Shown: positions 24,941 through 39,658, counted from the stretch's first letter. The stretch: DNA of 64,000 nt from a virus (IMGVR_UViG_3300020576_003495:96001-160000), one strand, 5' to 3'. Made by a program: numbers and translations. The notes: generated by a model not told the origin, from the letters alone.

Positions 24941-25417
24941 ATGAGTTATATATTTGTACCCGCCCCTGAGAATTACCCCGGAACGATCTACCAGTACGGT
25001 AATAGAATTTTAGAACACCATTTAGTGTGGTGGTTGTCTACGGGGTTACTTGTTCCAGATGGTTACGTTTTGCACCATAAAGACGAAGACCCAACTAACA
25101 ATGAATTTAGTAACTTGGAGTTGATGCTTGAGGGTGACCATATCCGCCACCACAACACACAGCACACCATTGCTAGATTTGTATGCCGTAGGTGCGGAAA
25201 TACGTTTGACCGAAATACCAGAGTTATTTCTGATGGGTCAAAACATATCTATTGCTCAAAAAGGTGTTCAGCGCTCAGCACATCAGGAAGATGCCGCCTT
25301 AGCGAAGATATGAAGGAAAAAGTGCGGTTGCTTAGAATTTCTGGTGGGTCGACTAGAAGTATTTCCAGAGAGTTAGGTATTAGTCGCAACACTGTGATGA
25401 AGTATTGGGGGATATAG
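24941..25417 (+). CDS. HNH homing endonuclease with C-terminal HTH
   Basis: LEHHLVWW, LHHKDEDPTNNEFSNL, LGISRNTVMKYW. Confidence 0.9.
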   Translation: MSYIFVPAPENYPGTIYQYGNRILEHHLVWWLSTGLLVPDGYVLHHKDEDPTNNEFSNLELMLEGDHIRHHNTQHTIARFVCRRCGNTFDRNTRVISDGSKHIYCSKRCSALSTSGRCRLSEDMKEKVRLLRISGGSTRSISRELGISRNTVMKYWGI

Positions 25418-25478
25418 ATGGGCTAAACAACTGATTTGCAATCAGTTAGGGACGGATCGTTACCGTCATTCTCCACCA
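25407..25478 (+). tRNA. tRNA-Ala(TGC), reduced D arm
   Basis: G3:U70 pair, A73, AACTGA-TTTGCAA-TCAGTT, CCA. Confidence 0.85.
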
Positions 25479-25578
25479 AGTTTCAAGCTAGACGGCAAGA
25501 TTGAGCTACGGGTGCTCTCTTGTTCGTGACAAGCCAGTAAGGCTCCCCAAAAGAGATAGCTGGTCGCTTTTTTACAAT

Positions 25579-25662
25579 GCGAGTGTGGCGTAATTGGTAG
25601 CCGCAGCGGTTTTAGAAGCCGCCGTTAATTCGTGGTGGGTTCGACTCCCCCCACTCGCACCA
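25579..25662 (+). tRNA. tRNA-Leu(TAG)
   Basis: cloverleaf, loop TTTAGAA, CCA. Confidence 0.92.
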
Positions 25663-25670
25663 AGTTTTAT

Positions 25671-25748
25671 CTACCTGTCGCCTAGTCTGGTATGGCCCCT
25701 GATTTGGGATCAGGCATAACCTCAGTTCAAATCTGAGCAGGTAGACCA
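25671..25748 (+). tRNA. tRNA-Pro(TGG)
   Basis: CCTGA-TTTGGGA-TCAGG, CCA. Confidence 0.92.
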
Positions 25749-25829
25749 GAATACTCCGTCATTGCGACTTGCACAGCAGCAGTGCCGGGAAAGGCAGTGT
25801 GCAAGCTGCCTGAGAGTTTTATTAGATTT

Positions 25830-25905
25830 GCCCCCTAAGCACATGTGGACGTGTGTCAGTCTCCAAAACTGAAGGTAGGCGGTTCGAGGCCGTCAGGGGG
25901 TGCCA
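25830..25905 (+). tRNA. tRNA-Trp(CCA)
   Basis: TCAGT-CTCCAAA-ACTGA, CCA. Confidence 0.92.
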
Positions 25906-25928
25906 ATGAAAGTAATTGCAAATACCCA

Positions 25929-25957
25929 TTGACAAATCGGGGGAGCTTTTATATAAT
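25929..25957 (+). promoter_or_regulatory. perfect consensus sigma70 promoter
   Basis: TTGACA-17 nt-TATAAT directly before ncRNA copy 1. Confidence 0.9.
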
Positions 25958-25963
25958 TAGTAA

Positions 25964-26316
25964 AACACTGTTAGATGCGTGTTTTTGGAGGTGGGCTTAG
26001 AAGCAGCCATCCTTAATGAGTAGGGCAAGTGCTGTATGCGGATACACATAGGCTGAGAAGGGCATCATTCAGGCCGAAAAGTTCAATAGGGTTTTGTGTG
26101 GATTCTTAGGGAGGCTGGCGTTAGGCCAGATAGCCGAAAGACGAAGCAAAATCACGCCAAGGCAGCTTCGCAAACTGCTGAAGGAATGGGAGTAGCACTC
26201 CCTGAGAACGAATGGGCGTACAGGGCCACACAGCTAGTATCAAGGGGAAGTTGCCGGTAATCCCCACGATCCCTTTTGGCGTGACAGCACACCAAGAATA
26301 CGCATCTAACACTGTT
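25964..26316 (+). ncRNA. 23S rRNA H43/H44 mimic ncRNA, copy 1
   Basis: GGAGGTGGGCTTAGAAGCAGCCATCC ... GCGTGACAGCACAC inside a long terminal helix GTTAGATGCGTGTTTTTGG/CCAAGAATACGCATCTAAC. Confidence 0.85.
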
Positions 26317-26326
26317 GTAAAAAGTT

Positions 26327-26366
26327 TGGCGAGGAGGTTGTTGGTTACCAGACAGGCTCATAACCT
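26327..26366 (+). pseudogene. 5' remnant of a CAT-anticodon tRNA
   Basis: retains D region and AGG-CTCATAA-CCT, lacks T arm and 3' strand. Confidence 0.75.
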
Positions 26367-26405
26367 TTTTCGCTAGTTGTGTTATGATACCCGTGGGGGT
26401 ATGCA

Positions 26406-26858
26406 ATGACACACTTACTATGTTGCAGTTGTAAAGAAAGCAAGCCTTTAGCTAGCTTTTCCAAAGACAAGAGTTCAAAGCGTGGGTACGCTAGTAAATG
26501 TAAAGACTGCCATAATACCTACGTGCGTACTGTGTGGTACCCAAAGAACAAGGATAAGCAGGTAGCGTCTGTTGCTCGTTTTAAAACAGCCAACAGACTG
26601 AAAGAAATCGCTTGGCGGCACGGTGTTCCGTTAGCGGATGTAGAAGAAGCAATAGAGCGCAGTTCTGGGGCTTGTGAAAGCTGCGGTTCCACTGTCTCTG
26701 TTGTGCTAGACCACTGCCACACCACGTCTAAAGTTAGAGGCGTCTTGTGCATGCGTTGTAATACAGTTTTAGGTAGGCTAGGGGATTCTTACGAGAGTGT
26801 TAAACAGCACATGGAGAGTTTGCTGGCCTATTTGGAAAAAAGTTTCGCGGGTGAGTGA
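26406..26858 (+). CDS. endonuclease VII-like homing endonuclease
   Basis: CESCG...LDHCHTT..VRGVLC..CN..LG. Confidence 0.9.
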   Translation: MTHLLCCSCKESKPLASFSKDKSSKRGYASKCKDCHNTYVRTVWYPKNKDKQVASVARFKTANRLKEIAWRHGVPLADVEEAIERSSGACESCGSTVSVVLDHCHTTSKVRGVLCMRCNTVLGRLGDSYESVKQHMESLLAYLEKSFAGE

Positions 26859-26923
26859 AACGTCTTACACAATGGGTTCATATCCCATTAACAGCAGGGT
26901 TAGACTCCCTGTACCCGCAACCA
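26846..26923 (+). tRNA. initiator tRNA-fMet(CAT)
   Basis: C1:A72 mismatch, GGG/CCC anticodon stem, CCA. Confidence 0.9.
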
Positions 26924-26925
26924 GT

Positions 26926-27052
26926 TTCTGTGGCGTAAATAACGATTTCCTCAATGCCAATGAAGTAACGTGGGTTCGAATCCCATCGGCTCGTAAGGGC
27001 TGTCGTCTAGTGGTTAGGACACTAAAAATTTCGTTGTTGCTTGTTCCCAGAA
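26926..27052 (+). ncRNA. YrlA-like Y RNA (permuted tRNA-like domain)
   Basis: T arm, closed acceptor-like stem, then D arm, on a long terminal stem ending CTTGTTCCCAG. Confidence 0.8.
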
Positions 27053-27162
27053 TTAAACAAAGGCCAGAAGCCTAAGTAGTTCCCCGAGCATACGGTAAAC
27101 GTGGGGTTCCCTTGAACAGACTGTTCTTCAACTTCTGTTCGGGGGGATCATGCGACAGTTTT

Positions 27163-27301
27163 ACGGTGTGTGCTTTCGTGCCGGTTCTACTAGAATCAAA
27201 ATTTTATCAAAGCATAGAACCTTGGTGGGGGCTAGGAAAGCCTCAAAATCACTAAAGGTCAGCAGTTGTATTTACAGAATTACGTGGGGGCTTGTTCCTG
27301 T
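27163..27301 (+). ncRNA. Y-RNA-like stem 2
   Basis: GGTGT...CTTGTTCC terminal motif shared with neighbours. Confidence 0.55.
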
Positions 27302-27332
27302 GTTCATAGAAGGATCACCCCAGTAGCAGATT

Positions 27333-27398
27333 TGCGTGGTGTATGGTTACCGTTACTTCTATCTTAGTGAAATCACACGGTTACCGCTTGTTCCCGCA
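27333..27398 (+). ncRNA. Y-RNA-like stem 3
   Basis: GTGGTGTA...TACTTC...GCTTGTTCCC. Confidence 0.65.
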
Positions 27399-27407
27399 TT
27401 TATTTAT

Positions 27408-27484
27408 TGCTTGTTAGCTCAGTCCGGCAGAGCATTGTCTTGATAAGGCACAGGTCGTCGGTTCAAATCCGACACAAGCAACCA
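27408..27484 (+). tRNA. tRNA-Ile(GAT)
   Basis: loop TTGATAA, CCA. Confidence 0.9.
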
Positions 27485-27488
27485 AGTT

Positions 27489-27551
27489 TCGGTGGTGTTG
27501 GTTAGTCGTTCTTCTTTCGGTGAAAAATCCGACTAGCTGTTTGTTCCCCGA
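27489..27551 (+). ncRNA. Y-RNA-like stem 4
   Basis: GTGGTGTT...TTCTTC...TTTGTTCCC. Confidence 0.6.
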
Positions 27552-27611
27552 TTAATTTCCCCAGTCTTAGTGGCGGGATGGTCTTAGGTATTTATACCCA
27601 CAGGAGTCAAC

Positions 27612-28112
27612 ATGTCCCCCGAACAGAAACAAGCCACATCCGAAGGTATTGAGAATGCTTTAGCTAGCGTACCCCCCGAGATTGTTGATGAAGCCCTACG
27701 CTTCTGGTATGCCTACGCAAAACTCCATTATCGTTTTACATCGGCACAAGTCCTCGTTTCTTTCCTTGCTCGCAAGGGCACAACACCCGGAAATGGCAAG
27801 GGTTGGCGGGATTGTTGGGGGTCGATTTGCGTGAAAGCCAAAAAGCAAGGCATCATGCAAAAAGTGGGGATCATGGTCACCACTGAGAAGCATACCCACA
27901 TGGGTCACGGTGCGTACTGGCAGTCCAAGGTTTATGAAGGTGGGGATGAGCAGTATCGAAACAGCCCCGAGCAGGATTTGAAGCGTGCGCTGTACATGCG
28001 CTGGCTCAAGAAGGATTATGAGAATCTGCGTGACTACACGGATGACGTGTTTTCGATGGGGGTCAAGTTTGCCCTTGAGAACAAAGAGTACGTTGCGGGG
28101 ATAAAAATTTAA
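27612..28112 (+). CDS. hypothetical protein
   Basis: AGGAG RBS, clean ORF. Confidence 0.7.
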   Translation: MSPEQKQATSEGIENALASVPPEIVDEALRFWYAYAKLHYRFTSAQVLVSFLARKGTTPGNGKGWRDCWGSICVKAKKQGIMQKVGIMVTTEKHTHMGHGAYWQSKVYEGGDEQYRNSPEQDLKRALYMRWLKKDYENLRDYTDDVFSMGVKFALENKEYVAGIKI

Positions 28113-28148
28113 CTGTGTGTGCTAACGTACAGACAGGTAGTTTCAACT

Positions 28149-28223
28149 GTGTCCCTGACAGAGAGGCCGATGTGCAGGATTGCAAACCCTGATAGCCCGG
28201 TTCAATTCCGGGGGGACACTCCA
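28149..28223 (+). tRNA. tRNA-Cys(GCA)
   Basis: loop TTGCAAA, U73, CCA. Confidence 0.9.
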
Positions 28224-28226
28224 AGT

Positions 28227-28378
28227 TACGTAGCATCACGGAAGGAACGTGCGTGGCCCACGAGGTCGATGGGGTACGGTCAGTTTTCATGTGGGGGTCG
28301 ACGCCCTAACATGCAAAGCTTAATGCTGTGCTGACAAGAAGGTGAGCAGGGCGCAACCCTGTAAGACCTTCCTACGTA
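28227..28378 (+). ncRNA. structured ncRNA candidate
   Basis: closed by TACGTAG/CTACGTA, internal hairpins, flanked by tRNAs. Confidence 0.45.
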
Positions 28379-28381
28379 TTT

Positions 28382-28459
28382 GCGCTCTGAGCTAGTCTGG
28401 TGATTCAGCGACAGTTTGAAGAACTGTAGAACTAGGTTCGATTCCTAGAGGGTGCACCA
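28382..28459 (+). tRNA. tRNA-Phe(GAA)
   Basis: ACAGT-TTGAAGA-ACTGT, CCA. Confidence 0.88.
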
Positions 28460-28478
28460 AGATTACTGTATAGTCGAG

Positions 28479-28553
28479 TGGGGTGATATGCAATGGATGC
28501 ATACTTGGCTTTGAACCAAGGTTAGTCAGGTTCGATTCCTACCACCCCTTCCA
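28479..28553 (+). tRNA. tRNA-Gln(TTG)
   Basis: CTTGG-CTTTGAA-CCAAG, CCA. Confidence 0.88.
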
Positions 28554-28559
28554 GTTTTT

Positions 28560-28643
28560 AGAGAGATGAGCTTTGGAAGCAAACTATCTTGGAAAGGTAG
28601 TCCATCCGAAAGGGTGACAGTTCGATTCTGTATCTCTCTGCCA
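28560..28643 (+). tRNA. tRNA-Ser(GGA)
   Basis: CTATC-TTGGAAA-GGTAG, long variable arm. Confidence 0.88.
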
Positions 28644-28651
28644 TGTTTTAA

Positions 28652-28739
28652 GGTTAGGTGCGCGAGTGGCTAAAGCGTCTTGTTTGCTAAACAATGAGTC
28701 CGAAAGGGCACTAGGGTTCGAACCCCTACCTAACCGCCA
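28652..28739 (+). tRNA. tRNA-Ser(GCT)
   Basis: loop TTGCTAA, long variable arm, CCA. Confidence 0.92.
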
Positions 28740-28745
28740 TGTTAC

Positions 28746-28822
28746 GCCGGGTTGACGGAATTGGCATACGTGCAAGTTTCAAAAACTTGATCTTGCGGGT
28801 TCGACTCCCGCACCCGGCACCA
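28746..28822 (+). tRNA. tRNA-Leu(CAA), short variable arm
   Basis: CAAGT-TTCAAAA-ACTTG, CCA. Confidence 0.9.
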
Positions 28823-28828
28823 AGTTTT

Positions 28829-28905
28829 GCCCTTGTGGTGGAATAGGCATACACACGCGCTTGAGGGGTGCGGTTCTGTCGGTTCGAGTCCGACCAAGGG
28901 TACCA
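28829..28905 (+). tRNA. tRNA-Leu(GAG), short variable arm
   Basis: CGCGC-TTGAGGG-GTGCG, CCA. Confidence 0.9.
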
Positions 28906-28911
28906 GTCTAT

Positions 28912-28982
28912 GCCCTCACTATCGAATAGCATCAGGTTTCCTAAACCAGATTGTGACAGTTAAACTCTGTCTGAGGGCACCA
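28912..28982 (+). tRNA. tRNA-Arg(CCT), minimal D arm
   Basis: loop TTCCTAA, perfect acceptor and T stems, CCA. Confidence 0.8.
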
Positions 28983-28983
28983 T

Positions 28984-29054
28984 ACCCCGACTGTGGGACA
29001 GATTTTGGCCTTCTAAGCCAAAAATGGGAGGTTCGAAACCTTCTCGGGGTGCCA
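28984..29054 (+). tRNA. tRNA-Arg(TCT), minimal D arm
   Basis: TTGGC-CTTCTAA-GCCAA, CCA. Confidence 0.82.
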
Positions 29055-29060
29055 AGTTTT

Positions 29061-29134
29061 GCGGATGTAGCTTAGTGATAAAGCGCTTGTTTGCCAAGCA
29101 AGATACGCGAGTTTGATTCTCGTCTTCCGCTCCA
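29061..29134 (+). tRNA. tRNA-Gly(GCC)
   Basis: loop TTGCCAA, U73, CCA. Confidence 0.9.
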
Positions 29135-29140
29135 AGTTTC

Positions 29141-29215
29141 GCCCTTGTAGCACAGTGGCAGTGCACTCGCTTGGTAAGCGAGAGGTCGTGGGTTCGATTC
29201 CGACCAAGGGCACCA
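29141..29215 (+). tRNA. tRNA-Thr(GGT)
   Basis: CTCGC-TTGGTAA-GCGAG. Confidence 0.92.
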
Positions 29216-29221
29216 AGTTTC

Positions 29222-29296
29222 GCCCTTTTAGCGCAGTGATAGAGCAATCGTTTCGTAAGCGATAGGTCGTCTGTTTGATTCAGACAAGGGGCACCA
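29222..29296 (+). tRNA. tRNA-Thr(CGT)
   Basis: ATCGT-TTCGTAA-GCGAT. Confidence 0.9.
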
Positions 29297-29306
29297 GAGT
29301 TTTAAT

Positions 29307-29383
29307 GGGACGTTAGCTCAGTCGGTAGTAGCACTCGCCTCTTAAGCGATAGGTCGTCAGTTCGATCCTGACACGTCCTACCA
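29307..29383 (+). tRNA. tRNA-Lys(CTT)
   Basis: loop CTCTTAA, CCA. Confidence 0.92.
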
Positions 29384-29454
29384 TCACATACTCCTTGACA
29401 AACTGTGGGGATTGGATTATCATTACTCCATAGTCAATCAACGGAGTGATGATC

Positions 29455-29745
29455 ATGTGGAATATAGTAATCGAAGGTAGTCAGGAAGTGTACGTTCGCC
29501 ATAATAATGAAATCGTGGCCCGGTTCAAGTACGCATCCCCCAAGGCCAGTGCCAAGCATTTTGTGAAGTTTCTGAAGGCGAACTACAGCCCCGAAGAATA
29601 CTTTGCCAAGCGCAAGTTGGGCATCCCGCCTTTGCGTATCCTTCATCAAAAGGGGTACGTCAGCTACAACGTTGAACGTGCCGACAAGGAAGCTATTGCG
29701 GGGGCTAAGAAGGTTTGGGCGATGTATGATCGTCTGAGTTTTTAA
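29455..29745 (+). CDS. hypothetical protein
   Basis: promoter 29395 and ACGGAG RBS. Confidence 0.65.
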   Translation: MWNIVIEGSQEVYVRHNNEIVARFKYASPKASAKHFVKFLKANYSPEEYFAKRKLGIPPLRILHQKGYVSYNVERADKEAIAGAKKVWAMYDRLSF

Positions 29746-29751
29746 AGTTTC

Positions 29752-30087
29752 GGTGTTCGTAGAGGGTGGGCTTAGAAGCAGCCATCCCTTAAAGAGTAGG
29801 ACAAGTGCTGTATGCAGGTACACATAGGCAGTTTAAGGGCATAGTTAACTGGCCGAAAAGTTCAATAGGGTTTGTGTGGATTCTTAGAACGGCTTGGGGT
29901 CTGGACTCCAAGTACCAATCGAAAGACGAAGCAAATCACGCCAAGGCAGTCTCGCAAACTGCTGAAGGAATGGGGGTTGCACCCACTGAGAGCGAATGGC
30001 ATACAGAGCCACACGGCAAGTATCAATGGAAGGCAGAGATGCTAAATCCAACGATTCCTTTTAGCGTAGTAGCACACTACGAACACC
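29752..30087 (+). ncRNA. 23S rRNA H43/H44 mimic ncRNA, copy 2
   Basis: AGGGTGGGCTTAGAAGCAGCCATCCCTTAAAGA ... AGCGTAGTAGCACAC closed by GGTGTTCGTAG/CTACGAACACC; colinear with copy 1. Confidence 0.85.
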
Positions 30088-30146
30088 ACCCATTTTTAGG
30101 AGATTTATCATGCGTTCAGAAGAAAGTGACAAACGCCCCGAATAAT

Positions 30147-30221
30147 GGGCGTGTAATTCAATTGGGAGAATCACCGGCTTTTACCCGGTTTACCAGAGTT
30201 CAAATCTCTGCGCGCCTACCA
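30147..30221 (+). tRNA. tRNA-Lys(TTT)
   Basis: ACCGG-CTTTTAC-CCGGT, CCA. Confidence 0.9.
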
Positions 30222-30239
30222 GTTGCAAGTAATTTCAAT

Positions 30240-30274
30240 GGTGATTGAAGAGCAAATTGGCCGCGCCAGCAGCC
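30240..30274 (+). pseudogene. 5' remnant of a His-type tRNA
   Basis: GGTGATTG-AAGAGCAAATTGGCCGCGCCA matches the D region of the adjacent tRNA-His. Confidence 0.7.
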
Positions 30275-30285
30275 ATAGTTTCAAT

Positions 30286-30374
30286 GGAGTCGTAAGAGCA
30301 AAGAGGACGCGCCACACGGCTGTGAACCGTGTCTCGAAAGAGGTTAGTGGGTTCAAGCCCCACACGACTCCCCA
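30286..30374 (+). tRNA. tRNA-His(GTG) with long variable arm
   Basis: 8-bp acceptor (G-1:C73), CACGG-CTGTGAA-CCGTG. Confidence 0.9.
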
Positions 30375-30496
30375 ACTGCATCAAAGGCTTTAACGGAAGC
30401 TACTAATTAGCGCACGGGTGTTCCAGTTTTTCTTGTAGTCGTAGCTGTAACGGTAAAAAGTCTCGTATGATTAAGCTATGCGAGGCGGGTAACAAT

Positions 30497-30573
30497 GCTG
30501 GTGTCGTCTAATGGACTAGGACATTTGACCTTCAATCAAAGCAATGTGGGTTCGACTCCCATCGCCAGCGCCA
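30497..30573 (+). tRNA. tRNA-Glu(TTC)
   Basis: TTTGA-CCTTCAA-TCAAA (C at position 33), CCA. Confidence 0.87.
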
Positions 30574-30610
30574 TTACTTAGTAAGAAATCTTTGTTGACC
30601 GATACCGTTC

Positions 30611-30646
30611 AAGGTGAGGCGGGTTTGACTCCCGTACCGGATACCA
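30611..30646 (+). pseudogene. 3' remnant of a tRNA (probably Glu)
   Basis: GCGGG-TTTGACT-CCCGT-ACCGGAT-A-CCA with no 5' half. Confidence 0.72.
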
Positions 30647-30655
30647 AGTTTCAAT

Positions 30656-30688
30656 TCCGCAGAATCCAAGCAAGGTGCAAGGACTTGT
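30656..30688 (+). pseudogene. 5' remnant of an Asn-type tRNA
   Basis: TCCGCAG-AA-TCCAAGCAAGGTGCAAGGA D arm, truncated in the anticodon stem. Confidence 0.6.
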
Positions 30689-30714
30689 CGGAAAGTGGGT
30701 GCAAAAAGATCAAT

Positions 30715-37691: not shown

Positions 37692-37855
37692 GCAAGGGTA
37701 GTTCAGTCCGGTAGAACCATCGCTCTGGATATATTGAAACGGAAACAGCTAAGGAAAACAAGTAAGGCTGATACCTGCCACACTGCACCCGAAAAGTGCA
37801 ACACTGTGGCCTCAAGTGAGTGTAATCGCAGGTTCGAATCCTGCCCCTTGCACCT
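37692..37855 (+). ncRNA. tRNA-like RNA with a ~90-nt structured insert replacing the anticodon loop
   Basis: perfect acceptor GCAAGGG/CCCTTGC, canonical D and T arms. Confidence 0.8.
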
Positions 37856-38302: not shown

Positions 38303-38384
38303 GAAAACCTTTTCGTAGTCCAGTGGCAAGATATGTGACATACCAGACACGACGGCGGGTTCGATTCCCCCCGAAAAGGTTTTC
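38303..38384 (+). ncRNA. tRNA-like RNA with 13-bp acceptor helix and no valid anticodon arm
   Basis: GAAAACCTTTTCG/CGAAAAGGTTTTC, D-like and TTCGATT loops. Confidence 0.6.
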
Positions 38385-38698: not shown

Positions 38699-38875
38699 AG
38701 TTTTAGTCAGTGCAGTGCATCGGAACGGTTCGGGTTCTGGTTGGCAGCAAGGTCGTGTCATGGTCGAAACAGTTGATGCGGTACTGCACTTACTAAAGTC
38801 AGGTCTGTATTGAGGTTGTCACAGGTTCCATACCCCTATGGCTGGAAATCCGGCAACGGTAGAGCAGACTTGATA

Positions 38876-39150
38876 ATTGCTGTAATTCTACTTGACGGTA
38901 AGCGTTTCGGACGCGGGGGCAGAACCCGCCGCCTCCACCAAACAGGGTCTTGCAAAGGGCTTTGCTTAATGGGGGCGACACAGTTTCGACGGGGCGTGGA
39001 TAAGATGGTGGCAGCAGGATAGGTGACTGCCCTAAGCAGCGCAAAACTTTAACTGCAAACGACTCGCAGTATCGTGTAGCGGCTTAGCCGTTACGGAGTT
39101 TGCCCACCAAACCTACTTTGTAGGGGGCTTGGCAACAGAAAGTGGGCAGT
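38876..39150 (+). ncRNA. ssrA: permuted two-piece tmRNA, tag (A)ANDSQYRVAA
   Basis: acceptor piece ends CGCCTCCACCA (38940) upstream of coding piece GGGGGCGAC...TTCGAC (38971); tag ORF 39055-39087. Confidence 0.93.
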
Positions 39151-39658
39151 ACTTTTTATGGTCACCCATAAAAAAATTAAACGCCATTTCTTTACGGCAG
39201 ATAAGGCAGCTAACCCTACGTTGTTTTTTACCCTGCATGGGGTTGTTACCAGAAGCCGATTGTTCTTTTCGTTTAGTTGTGATGTAGTCTTTGAAAGACG
39301 GGTCATCCCTAGTTTTTTTCCACAAGGCACCAGACCCGAGTATTCCAGCGGCTCGTTTGTTCATAGTGCTAAATAGCACGGGCTGGACGGCTATATTGAG
39401 GCTTTGTTTAGACGCATAAGTTTCGCGTATAAGGGATTGTTCATATTCAAACGCAGCTTCTTTATTGGGAAACTCAGCAATAACTTTGTAGTCGAACAAC
39501 TTGAATCGGGGTTTTACTAGCTTAGACGAGGTTTTATAAATGTGCCCAAGGTCTTCAAGGGCGGGTACTTTATTAGCCCACCTGACACCGATATAAAATT
39601 CTTGTGTTTCTCTGTTGGTGCATTGGTACACGTATGGTAGTATTTTAGGTGAGGTCAT
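39113..39658 (-). CDS. GIY-YIG-like homing endonuclease
   Basis: YVYQCTN...FYIGVR, YEQ..I, NNPMQGKK. Confidence 0.8.
   Translation of the reverse strand: MTSPKILPYVYQCTNRETQEFYIGVRWANKVPALEDLGHIYKTSSKLVKPRFKLFDYKVIAEFPNKEAAFEYEQSLIRETYASKQSLNIAVQPVLFSTMNKRAAGILGSGALWKKTRDDPSFKDYITTKRKEQSASGNNPMQGKKQRRVSCLICRKEMAFNFFMGDHKKYCPLSVAKPPTK

Follow-up and report, generated by a model that had tools for sequence, protein, structure and literature searches.

The window analysed here is a 64,000-nt stretch of DNA comprising bases 96001-160000 of the 178-kb IMG/VR virus record IMGVR_UViG_3300020576_003495, which represents an uncultured phage (~91% complete). It carries two copies of an RNA element that rebuilds the domain formed by the top of helix 42 and helices 43 and 44 (H42, H43, H44) of the GTPase-associated centre of 23S ribosomal RNA (rRNA). 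The elements are free-standing RNAs and not a piece of an rRNA gene, and they belong to a family of at least 110 distinct elements (88-410 nt, median 193) recovered from large phages. On sequence grounds we put at roughly 55% the probability that the RNA captures in trans a host component that reads the folded GTPase-centre site, ribosomal protein uL11 being the first candidate.

The two copies lie on the + strand, at the positions given for them in a first-pass annotation made from the sequence alone. Their parts are listed below.

25964-26316 (+): full gene for copy 1 of the RNA mimicking the GTPase centre, with the limits set in the first-pass annotation; paired structure 25969-26311
25969-25988 (+): copy 1 closing helix, 5' strand (H42-like); 20 base pairs (bp) with 26292-26311, two of them G-U, by reading and folding
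25989-26021 (+): copy 1 5' core, comprising the H43 hairpin with loop UUAGAAGCA, the junction and GAGU; equivalent to E. coli 1056-1090 but lacking one pair or one base
26022-26274 (+): copy 1 inserted arm, 253 nt, branched, with AGGG/CCCU closure and hairpins whose loops are AAGGGCAU and UUCGCAAA
26275-26291 (+): copy 1 3' core, comprising the UUUG linker, the H44 hairpin GC-GUGACA-GC and ACA; equivalent to E. coli 1091-1103
26292-26311 (+): copy 1 closing helix, 3' strand; pairs with 25969-25988
29752-30087 (+): copy 2 of the mimic RNA; H44 loop GUAGUA
29752-29762 with 30077-30087 (+): copy 2 closing helix, 11 bp
29763-29797 (+): copy 2 5' core
29798-30059 (+): copy 2 arm, 262 nt
30060-30076 (+): copy 2 3' core

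The copies are 80-85% identical to each other, and the 178-kb record holds no others. Their closing helices have unrelated sequences, yet each is fully paired over its 20 or 11 bp, as the annotation had described.

The E. coli 23S rRNA (locus L122) served as the reference for the core. Copy 2 agrees with it letter for letter at 1059-1060, at 1062-1079 and through the junction 1082-1088, while both sides of the pairs 1057-1081 and 1058-1080 are altered, to G-C. The top of the H43 stem (G-G-C/G-C-C) and the 9-nt loop UUAGAAGCA are identical to the E. coli sequence in both copies, and the Rfam bacterial large-subunit rRNA model matches copy 2 at 29764-29803 (22.4 bits, E 5e-6). On the 3' side, each copy has two pairs capped by a hexaloop and then ACA, the counterpart of H44 positions 1091-1103. 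The bases expected to dock H43 onto H44 (G1071, C1072, G1091-C1100 and C1092-G1099) are present in both; in the rRNA domain, the two H44 pairs are acceptors of base triples from G1071 and C1072. Positions 1082-1086 presumably form a tertiary pair of the domain, as in the crystal-structure literature, and U1060-A1088 presumably a further one. Copy 2 keeps A1095 (loop GUAGUA) and the U-A combination at 1082-1086.

The likeness to rRNA ends at two places. The flanks close upon themselves and the rRNA sequence stops there, with no continuation into H42 and the remaining 23S rRNA. The H44 stem is interrupted by the arm, which in the two copies is followed by a UUUG or UUUA linker and sits between U1090 and G1091. 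The insert recognized by the first-pass annotation is real, but its location is inside H44, between 1090 and 1091, and not before that helix. As an observation on the rRNA itself, one E. coli 23S rRNA (assembly NIPH17_0020, locus L121) reads AAAG once where other E. coli read AAAGAAAG, so that four junction/H44 bases are missing; this may be genuine variation or an artefact of a collapsed assembly.

An exact scan of IMG/VR with an 18-nt H43 word returned at least 115 stretches. Among the matches listed, all readable stretches but one chance-looking case (locus L039) continue into the junction and an arm, and not into rRNA. A search of these for the H44 hairpin and a 3' strand complementary to the 5' flank gave a first set of at least 65 distinct closed elements. 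A second scan, with a 3' word absent from rRNA, gave at least 75 distinct elements that had not been selected for H43, and the two scans combined gave the 110 elements. All sequence counts for these three sets refer to the matches listed in the two scans.

Among the checks named in the first-pass annotation were a covariance model across phages and a cmscan search of Rfam. A covariance model (R1) made without copies 1 and 2 finds their 5' cores at E values of 3e-9 and 7.5e-11, with no other match in the 64 kb under E 0.25; chance origin of the two copies is excluded. The model misplaces the 3' ends of both copies because their arms (~260 nt) exceed its span. In searches of Rfam 15, neither copy was overlapped by a match, whether the gathering score or an E cut-off of 10 was applied, and the element in 10 other loci had no overlapping match at gathering score; this excludes the group I introns, ROOL, GOLLD, RNase P, Y RNAs and ribosomal-protein leaders that are catalogued there. 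A full-text literature search found no description of such an RNA; the nearest publications concern phage-encoded ribosomal proteins (PMC6375957) and the rRNA domain itself.

Selection on the fold is visible throughout the family. At positions 1-4 of the closing helix, pairing was demanded by the element search and is hence present in all 65 elements of the first set. The next four positions, at which it was not demanded, are paired in 62, 57, 52 and 49 of the 65, with all four pair types represented; the helix has a different sequence in every member and keeps its pairing throughout. In the same 65 elements, pair 1057-1081 is AU in 49, CG in 9 and GC in 3, and pair 1058-1080 is GC in 29, UA in 23, AU in 8 and CG in 4. 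The combination at 1082-1086 is UA in 31 and CG in 20 (12 and 8, respectively, among 24 short members). U1060 occurs with A1088 in 63 elements and G1087-C1102 is found in 59, while G1091-C1100 and C1092-G1099 are present in 65 of 65. Within the H44 hexaloop (GUAAUA in rRNA), G1093, U1094 and A1098 are invariant, A1095 is kept in 61 of the 65, and 1096 and 1097 vary. The 75 elements found with the 3' word have A1067 in 63, A1069 in 72, A1070 in 70, G1071 in 74 and C1072 in 75, and their rare changes in the H43 stem are compensated at 1062-1076 and 1064-1074.

A formal covariation count was carried out on 24 short members, using a MAFFT alignment, our own structure, 500 shuffles and slid controls. 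Paired cells amounted to 95.3%, against 70.2% in the shuffles, and cells with both partners altered numbered 141, compared with 44. The covariation score of 0.628 compares with 0.152 for shuffled alignments and 0.10-0.18 for the slid controls, and was reached by 0 of 500 shuffles. The basal helix of the arm covaries strongly in the same members. The fold is under selection in the family, and the resemblance to the GTPase-associated centre that was first noticed in two copies holds for the structure, with family-wide covariation in the closing helix, in H43, at the arm base and at 1082-1086.

Binding of L11 requires the tertiary fold of the domain, and position 1061 is variable among rRNAs (PMC6239185); in the family, this position is U, A or G. 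The same study names A1070 and A1095 as bases that do not vary in rRNA despite taking no part in tertiary contacts, and states that A1095 contacts cofactors. Since these bases are kept in the phage elements as well, reading by the same ligands as rRNA is favoured, which argues that selection has acted on more than stability alone.

The carriers are very diverse. Cultured phages in which the element is present and unannotated include Pseudomonas pf16, Cronobacter GAP32, Pectobacterium CBB and Serratia BF, several Erwinia, Xanthomonas (XacN1) and Yersinia jumbo phages, Aeromonas 4_4572, Paenibacillus Pd_22F and a Vibrio phage; the hosts are thus both Gram-negative and Gram-positive. By the family model, 25 of 30 near-complete carriers have one copy, four (the source phage included) have two and one has three. 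The few copies in bacterial assemblies are presumably prophages or binned phage contigs. A 16-mer scan of bacterial and archaeal genomes (596 Gb) gave 121 matches, mostly in coding sequence, of which ~11-17 are real elements; ~550 chance matches were expected, and host range is therefore unreadable from this list.

A1101, the UUUG linker and the arm are departures from rRNA that are specific to the family and common to very diverse phages (>100 lineages). The family therefore evolves as a lineage of its own, and not by repeated capture of host rRNA. Comparison of the mimic with the GTPase centre of its host in the same genome was possible for two usable pairs (Thioploca and a Clostridiaceae isolate), too few to go beyond a suggestion of host-like variable positions.

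The arm is a variable part of the element. Between the two copies it is colinear, and the hairpins that differ remain paired in both, as previously claimed: the stem of the AAGGGCAU-loop hairpin is CUGA/UCAG in copy 1 and CAGUU/AACUG in copy 2, and a variable hairpin near 26116-26131 likewise stays paired. The same arm plan recurs at low identity in five other phages (L028, L210, L070, L014 and L082). In the consensus of the seven sequences, compensated changes occur at 34 of the 53 pairs. Its elements are the basal helix, a helix of long range, the hairpin with the AAGGGCAU loop, an inner multiloop closed by a helix of four pairs, a hairpin with the loop UUCGCWA and, near the 3' end, a GNRA hairpin followed by UAAGG, of which copy 1 has no clear version. 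A two-sequence consensus fold that paired the H44 hairpin with arm positions 26029-26039 was dropped for the seven-sequence fold, which covaries. The complementarity itself, between 26029-26039 and the H44 hairpin at 26279-26290 of copy 1, extends to seven perfect pairs and more, is less marked in copy 2 and is not seen in the remaining members of the class; it may reflect an alternative conformer or chance.

Arms of other sub-classes are unrelated, and nothing is common across sub-classes. Searches with blastn gave no match for the whole of copy 1 in GenBank phages and, for the arms against all fetched loci, weak matches to L028, L109 and L210 and no others; an exact arm 21-mer had no match in IMG/VR. 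From the results for copy 1 and the 21-mer, the arm is lineage-specific and the core alone is shared. Across the family the arm ranges from ~30 nt (a hairpin, L119) to ~350 nt, and in many members it is a plain hairpin of 30-60 nt, so that the conserved insert of ~270 nt first described for the two copies is a property of one sub-class and does not extend to the whole family. One armless member, at L015:3715-3775 (+), is a minimal ~60-nt copy of the domain beside a tRNA-like stretch. In nine loci (L127, L143, L150, L168, L186, L191, L192, L208 and L214) the likeness to rRNA stops after 1077, as if the 3' strand of H43 held an arm, whether in place of the one in H44 or besides it.

The elements are associated with transfer RNA (tRNA) genes. 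For 82 of the 110, tRNA genes occur within the few kb fetched around them, and 583 of the 584 tRNA genes in the loci are on the same strand as the element, which fixes the element strand. A tRNA gene lies at most 30 nt away from 42 of the 110 elements, and in pf16 the element occupies the gap between tRNA-Asn and tRNA-Pro. The arrangement suggests release of the RNA by tRNA-processing enzymes. Clustering of ~2,600 neighbouring open reading frames (ORFs) revealed no family in more than 10 of the 110 loci. Among 50 carrier phage records, including 30 with a completeness of 90% or more, no genome encodes the RNA-binding domain of uL11, and any uL11 partner would therefore be that of the host.

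In the source phage, the two copies are preceded or followed by the features listed here.

25929-25957 (+): consensus sigma-70 promoter, TTGACA-17-TATAAT, 12/12 matches; ends seven bases before 25964, with the predicted start near 25964
29395-29423 (+): promoter-like site, 11/12 matches; precedes a 99-residue ORF at 29446-29745
30147-30221 (+): tRNA-Lys(UUU), 60 nt after copy 2

The promoter of copy 1 is thus as perfect as had been reported, and fits early transcription by the host polymerase. The stop codon of the 99-residue ORF falls six bases before copy 2, and the two are probably co-transcribed; copy 2 would be made within a transcript that also holds the ORF and the tRNA. Between copy 2 and tRNA-Lys(UUU) lies an 11-codon ORF (30111-30146, +) whose ATG has a strong ribosome-binding site, AGGAG, at a distance of 7 nt.

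In two freshwater metatranscriptomes from different studies, the sole long mismatch-free contigs on 25300-30700 fall inside copy 1 (284 nt at 26020-26303 and 245 nt at 26029-26273). In DNA-like runs, by contrast, contigs extend through the flanks. These results give a hint that copy 1 accumulates as RNA. For copy 2, cover in the RNA runs is confined to the H43 word that is identical to rRNA, which allows no inference; the very high depth at 25987-26014 and 29765-29797 is rRNA of other organisms.

According to the reading preferred here, the RNA would accumulate in the infected cell and act off the ribosome as an imitation of the GTPase-centre site. Its two ends join to form the H43/H44 head on a private helix in place of H42, and the variable arm exits H44 between 1090 and 1091. 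In members that abut tRNA genes, the ends may be cut by tRNA-processing enzymes, with no need for a dedicated maturation machinery. Since host uL11 recognises precisely this fold and is exchanged on ribosomes, it would be the likeliest partner captured; binding may also involve a factor reading the H43 and H44 loops, either by itself or jointly with uL11. Binding of the uL10/bL12 stalk is unlikely, as the H42-like closing helix varies freely in sequence. Ribosomes or factors would then be diverted from their normal GTPase-centre contacts; uL11-poor ribosomes, for example, would not activate RelA. The occurrence of carriers across Gram-negative and Gram-positive hosts fits a universal target. 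A more specific version, in which the RNA is a phage counter-measure at the GTPase centre, is tentative and on balance unlikely: it might hold or strip uL11 and so blind RelA and other alarm or defence pathways reading the site, or act as a decoy for undiscovered anti-phage toxins that modify or cut H43/H44.

Several points weigh against capture of a host component by the folded site. The arm interrupts H44, and the uL11 face might not stay free. uL11 is about as abundant as ribosomes and is tightly bound to them, so that titration would need the RNA at levels like those of tRNA. Copy 1 departs from rRNA in having G at 1095 (loop GUGACA), U-U at 1082-1086 and an H43 or junction that is one unit short. 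The contigs from the RNA libraries come without strand or ends, and DNA carry-over is possible. Finally, a close relative from wastewater, seen in DNA-like runs, has a joint from 29745 to 30097 by which precisely copy 2 is left out or exchanged, which makes one copy dispensable.

The main rival, which is improbable, is that a host toxin or a defence enzyme directed against the GTPase centre takes the RNA as a decoy substrate, the abundant naked copy absorbing the enzyme and sparing the ribosomes, much as phage tRNAs stand in for or protect tRNAs cleaved by anticodon nucleases. The bacterial toxin Tre23 ADP-ribosylates the H44 loop bases 1095-1098 (PMC8661411), but within the core this loop shows the least conservation (variation at 1096 and 1097, GUGACA in copy 1) and no anti-phage system aimed at the site is known. 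The H43 and H44 loops are conserved beyond the needs of folding, and the early host-type promoter of copy 1 and the position of the family in tRNA arrays would suit a decoy; a phage tRNA is known to neutralise PARIS (PMC11464382). Yet a catalytic enzyme is hard to out-compete, and the clustering of neighbouring ORFs gave no repair or reversal enzyme accompanying the RNA.

Somewhat more doubtful still is the proposal that the rRNA-like core is a mere handle, either recruiting uL11 or providing a stable fold that protects or chaperones the RNA, and that the arm is the working part, for instance by binding another RNA or a protein. The long branched arms that covary within sub-classes (34 of 53 pairs compensated in the class of the two copies) would agree with this, as would the spread of arm lengths. 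Nevertheless, many arms are no more than the short plain hairpin and one member has no arm, and it is the core that is extremely constrained in all members, whereas the arms share nothing across sub-classes.

A cis-acting leader, by which uL11 or another ribosomal protein would regulate a downstream phage gene, is very improbable, even though imitation of rRNA sites by mRNA leaders is an established mechanism (PMC3616713). The elements do not sit in the 5' UTR of a ribosomal-protein gene or another regulated gene; around them lie tRNA genes on their own strand and small unrelated ORFs, and neither a conserved ORF nor a shared protein family; the element is self-closed, with no start codon or ribosome-binding site folded in; and copy 2 is followed by a tRNA.

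Two genes of homing-endonuclease character are located near copy 1.

26406-26858 (+): 150-residue ORF with a Recombination endonuclease VII domain (Endonuclease_7), E 4e-15; directly after copy 1
24941-25417: HNH_3 ORF, homing endonuclease type

The relative mentioned above also lacks 26332-26922 (joint 26331 to 26923) and with it the endonuclease VII ORF, which is therefore a mobile homing-endonuclease cassette. Least probable of all, and largely refuted, is that the elements are a group I intron, another ribozyme or a mobile element with captured scraps of 23S exon, or a decaying rRNA pseudogene: the endonuclease genes are near and group I introns occur in rRNA genes, but there is no Rfam match even at E 10, the flanks close by member-specific helices and do not continue as rRNA, the arm may be a 30-nt hairpin, the family-specific changes (A1101, UUUG linker) occur in >100 lineages, covariation attests to selection on the fold, and the endonuclease ORF is a separate cassette absent in the relative.

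The window is dense in tRNA genes on one strand (32 by ARAGORN), and it also encodes a transfer-messenger RNA (tmRNA).

38848-39178 (+): tmRNA gene of the permuted, two-piece type, with ANDSQYRVAA as tag peptide; tmRNA_permuted 134.7 bits, alpha_tmRNA 95 bits

A 161-nt tRNA match at 37692-37852 (+), which ARAGORN does not call, has 106 nt in place of the 18-nt anticodon-arm region, leaving ~88 nt extra as an intron or insert. At 38308-38380 (+), ARAGORN reports a tRNA to which it assigns no identity and whose 'anticodon' has two bases. The bacterial Y RNA-like family YrlA matches weakly at 26953-27044 (+; 27.5 bits against a gathering score of 69, E 0.0065), adjoining a degenerate tRNA-like stretch. 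Searches of the window ORFs against PHROGs and Pfam gave, beyond the homing endonucleases, no pointer to host or function. DNA of the phage is present in river, freshwater, wastewater and activated-sludge runs.

With the 23S GTPase-associated centre itself (E. coli 1051-1108, the 58-nt uL11/thiostrepton domain) the phage RNA has in common the H43 hairpin and loop, the junction, the H44 hairpin and the docking bases, and it has the same variable positions (1057-1081, 1058-1080, 1061 and 1082-1086) and the same fixed ones. It differs in lying outside an rRNA gene and among phage tRNA genes, in its private closing helix, in the splitting of H44 after 1090 by the arm and UUUG linker, and in having A at 1101, which is able to pair with U1090. 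The autoregulatory leaders of ribosomal proteins, e.g. L10 and L1, are likewise off-ribosome RNAs that copy a ribosomal-protein site on rRNA. They act in cis on the ribosomal-protein operons of the cell and are loose copies, whereas the phage RNA is free-standing, stands beside tRNAs and has an H43 nearly identical to rRNA. We know of no mRNA leader that copies the L11 site.

Phage tRNAs and tmRNA share the arrays and the strand of the element, and probably its transcripts and processing, and like it they copy host RNAs of translation. A phage tRNA can work in translation, whereas a 58-nt rRNA domain cannot replace its ribosomal counterpart and must therefore act by imitation. Phage tRNAs are regarded as translation 'spare parts', and some have been shown to defeat defence nucleases, as in the PARIS case (PMC11464382). 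The large ornate RNAs ROOL and GOLLD (PMC12286853) are also phage-borne and structured, and often lie near tRNA genes; the mimic family has no Rfam match to either of them and is much smaller, and ROOL and GOLLD are not reported to be rRNA-like. The phage pseudo-ToxI, a mimic of an antitoxin RNA (PMC3475682), likewise works by mimicry of a host RNA, with another target and fold and in one phage lineage, whereas the GTPase-centre mimic occurs in very diverse phages.

The family offers annotators a new gene in the 'empty' gaps of phage tRNA arrays, and provides natural, predicted self-folding RNAs of the uL11/thiostrepton site with a tolerated insertion point. The cultured carriers pf16, GAP32, CBB, Serratia BF and XacN1 make it directly testable. 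To our knowledge, phages carry tRNAs, tmRNA and a few ribosomal proteins, and copies of a functional rRNA centre have not been known among them. Here a universally conserved ribosomal site is copied nearly letter for letter, tertiary-contact bases included, under selection in >100 very different large phages, which points to an undescribed general manipulation of translation, of the stringent response or of a defence pathway. Should the RNA prove to be a counter-measure, it would be the first rRNA-domain mimic in virus-host conflict.

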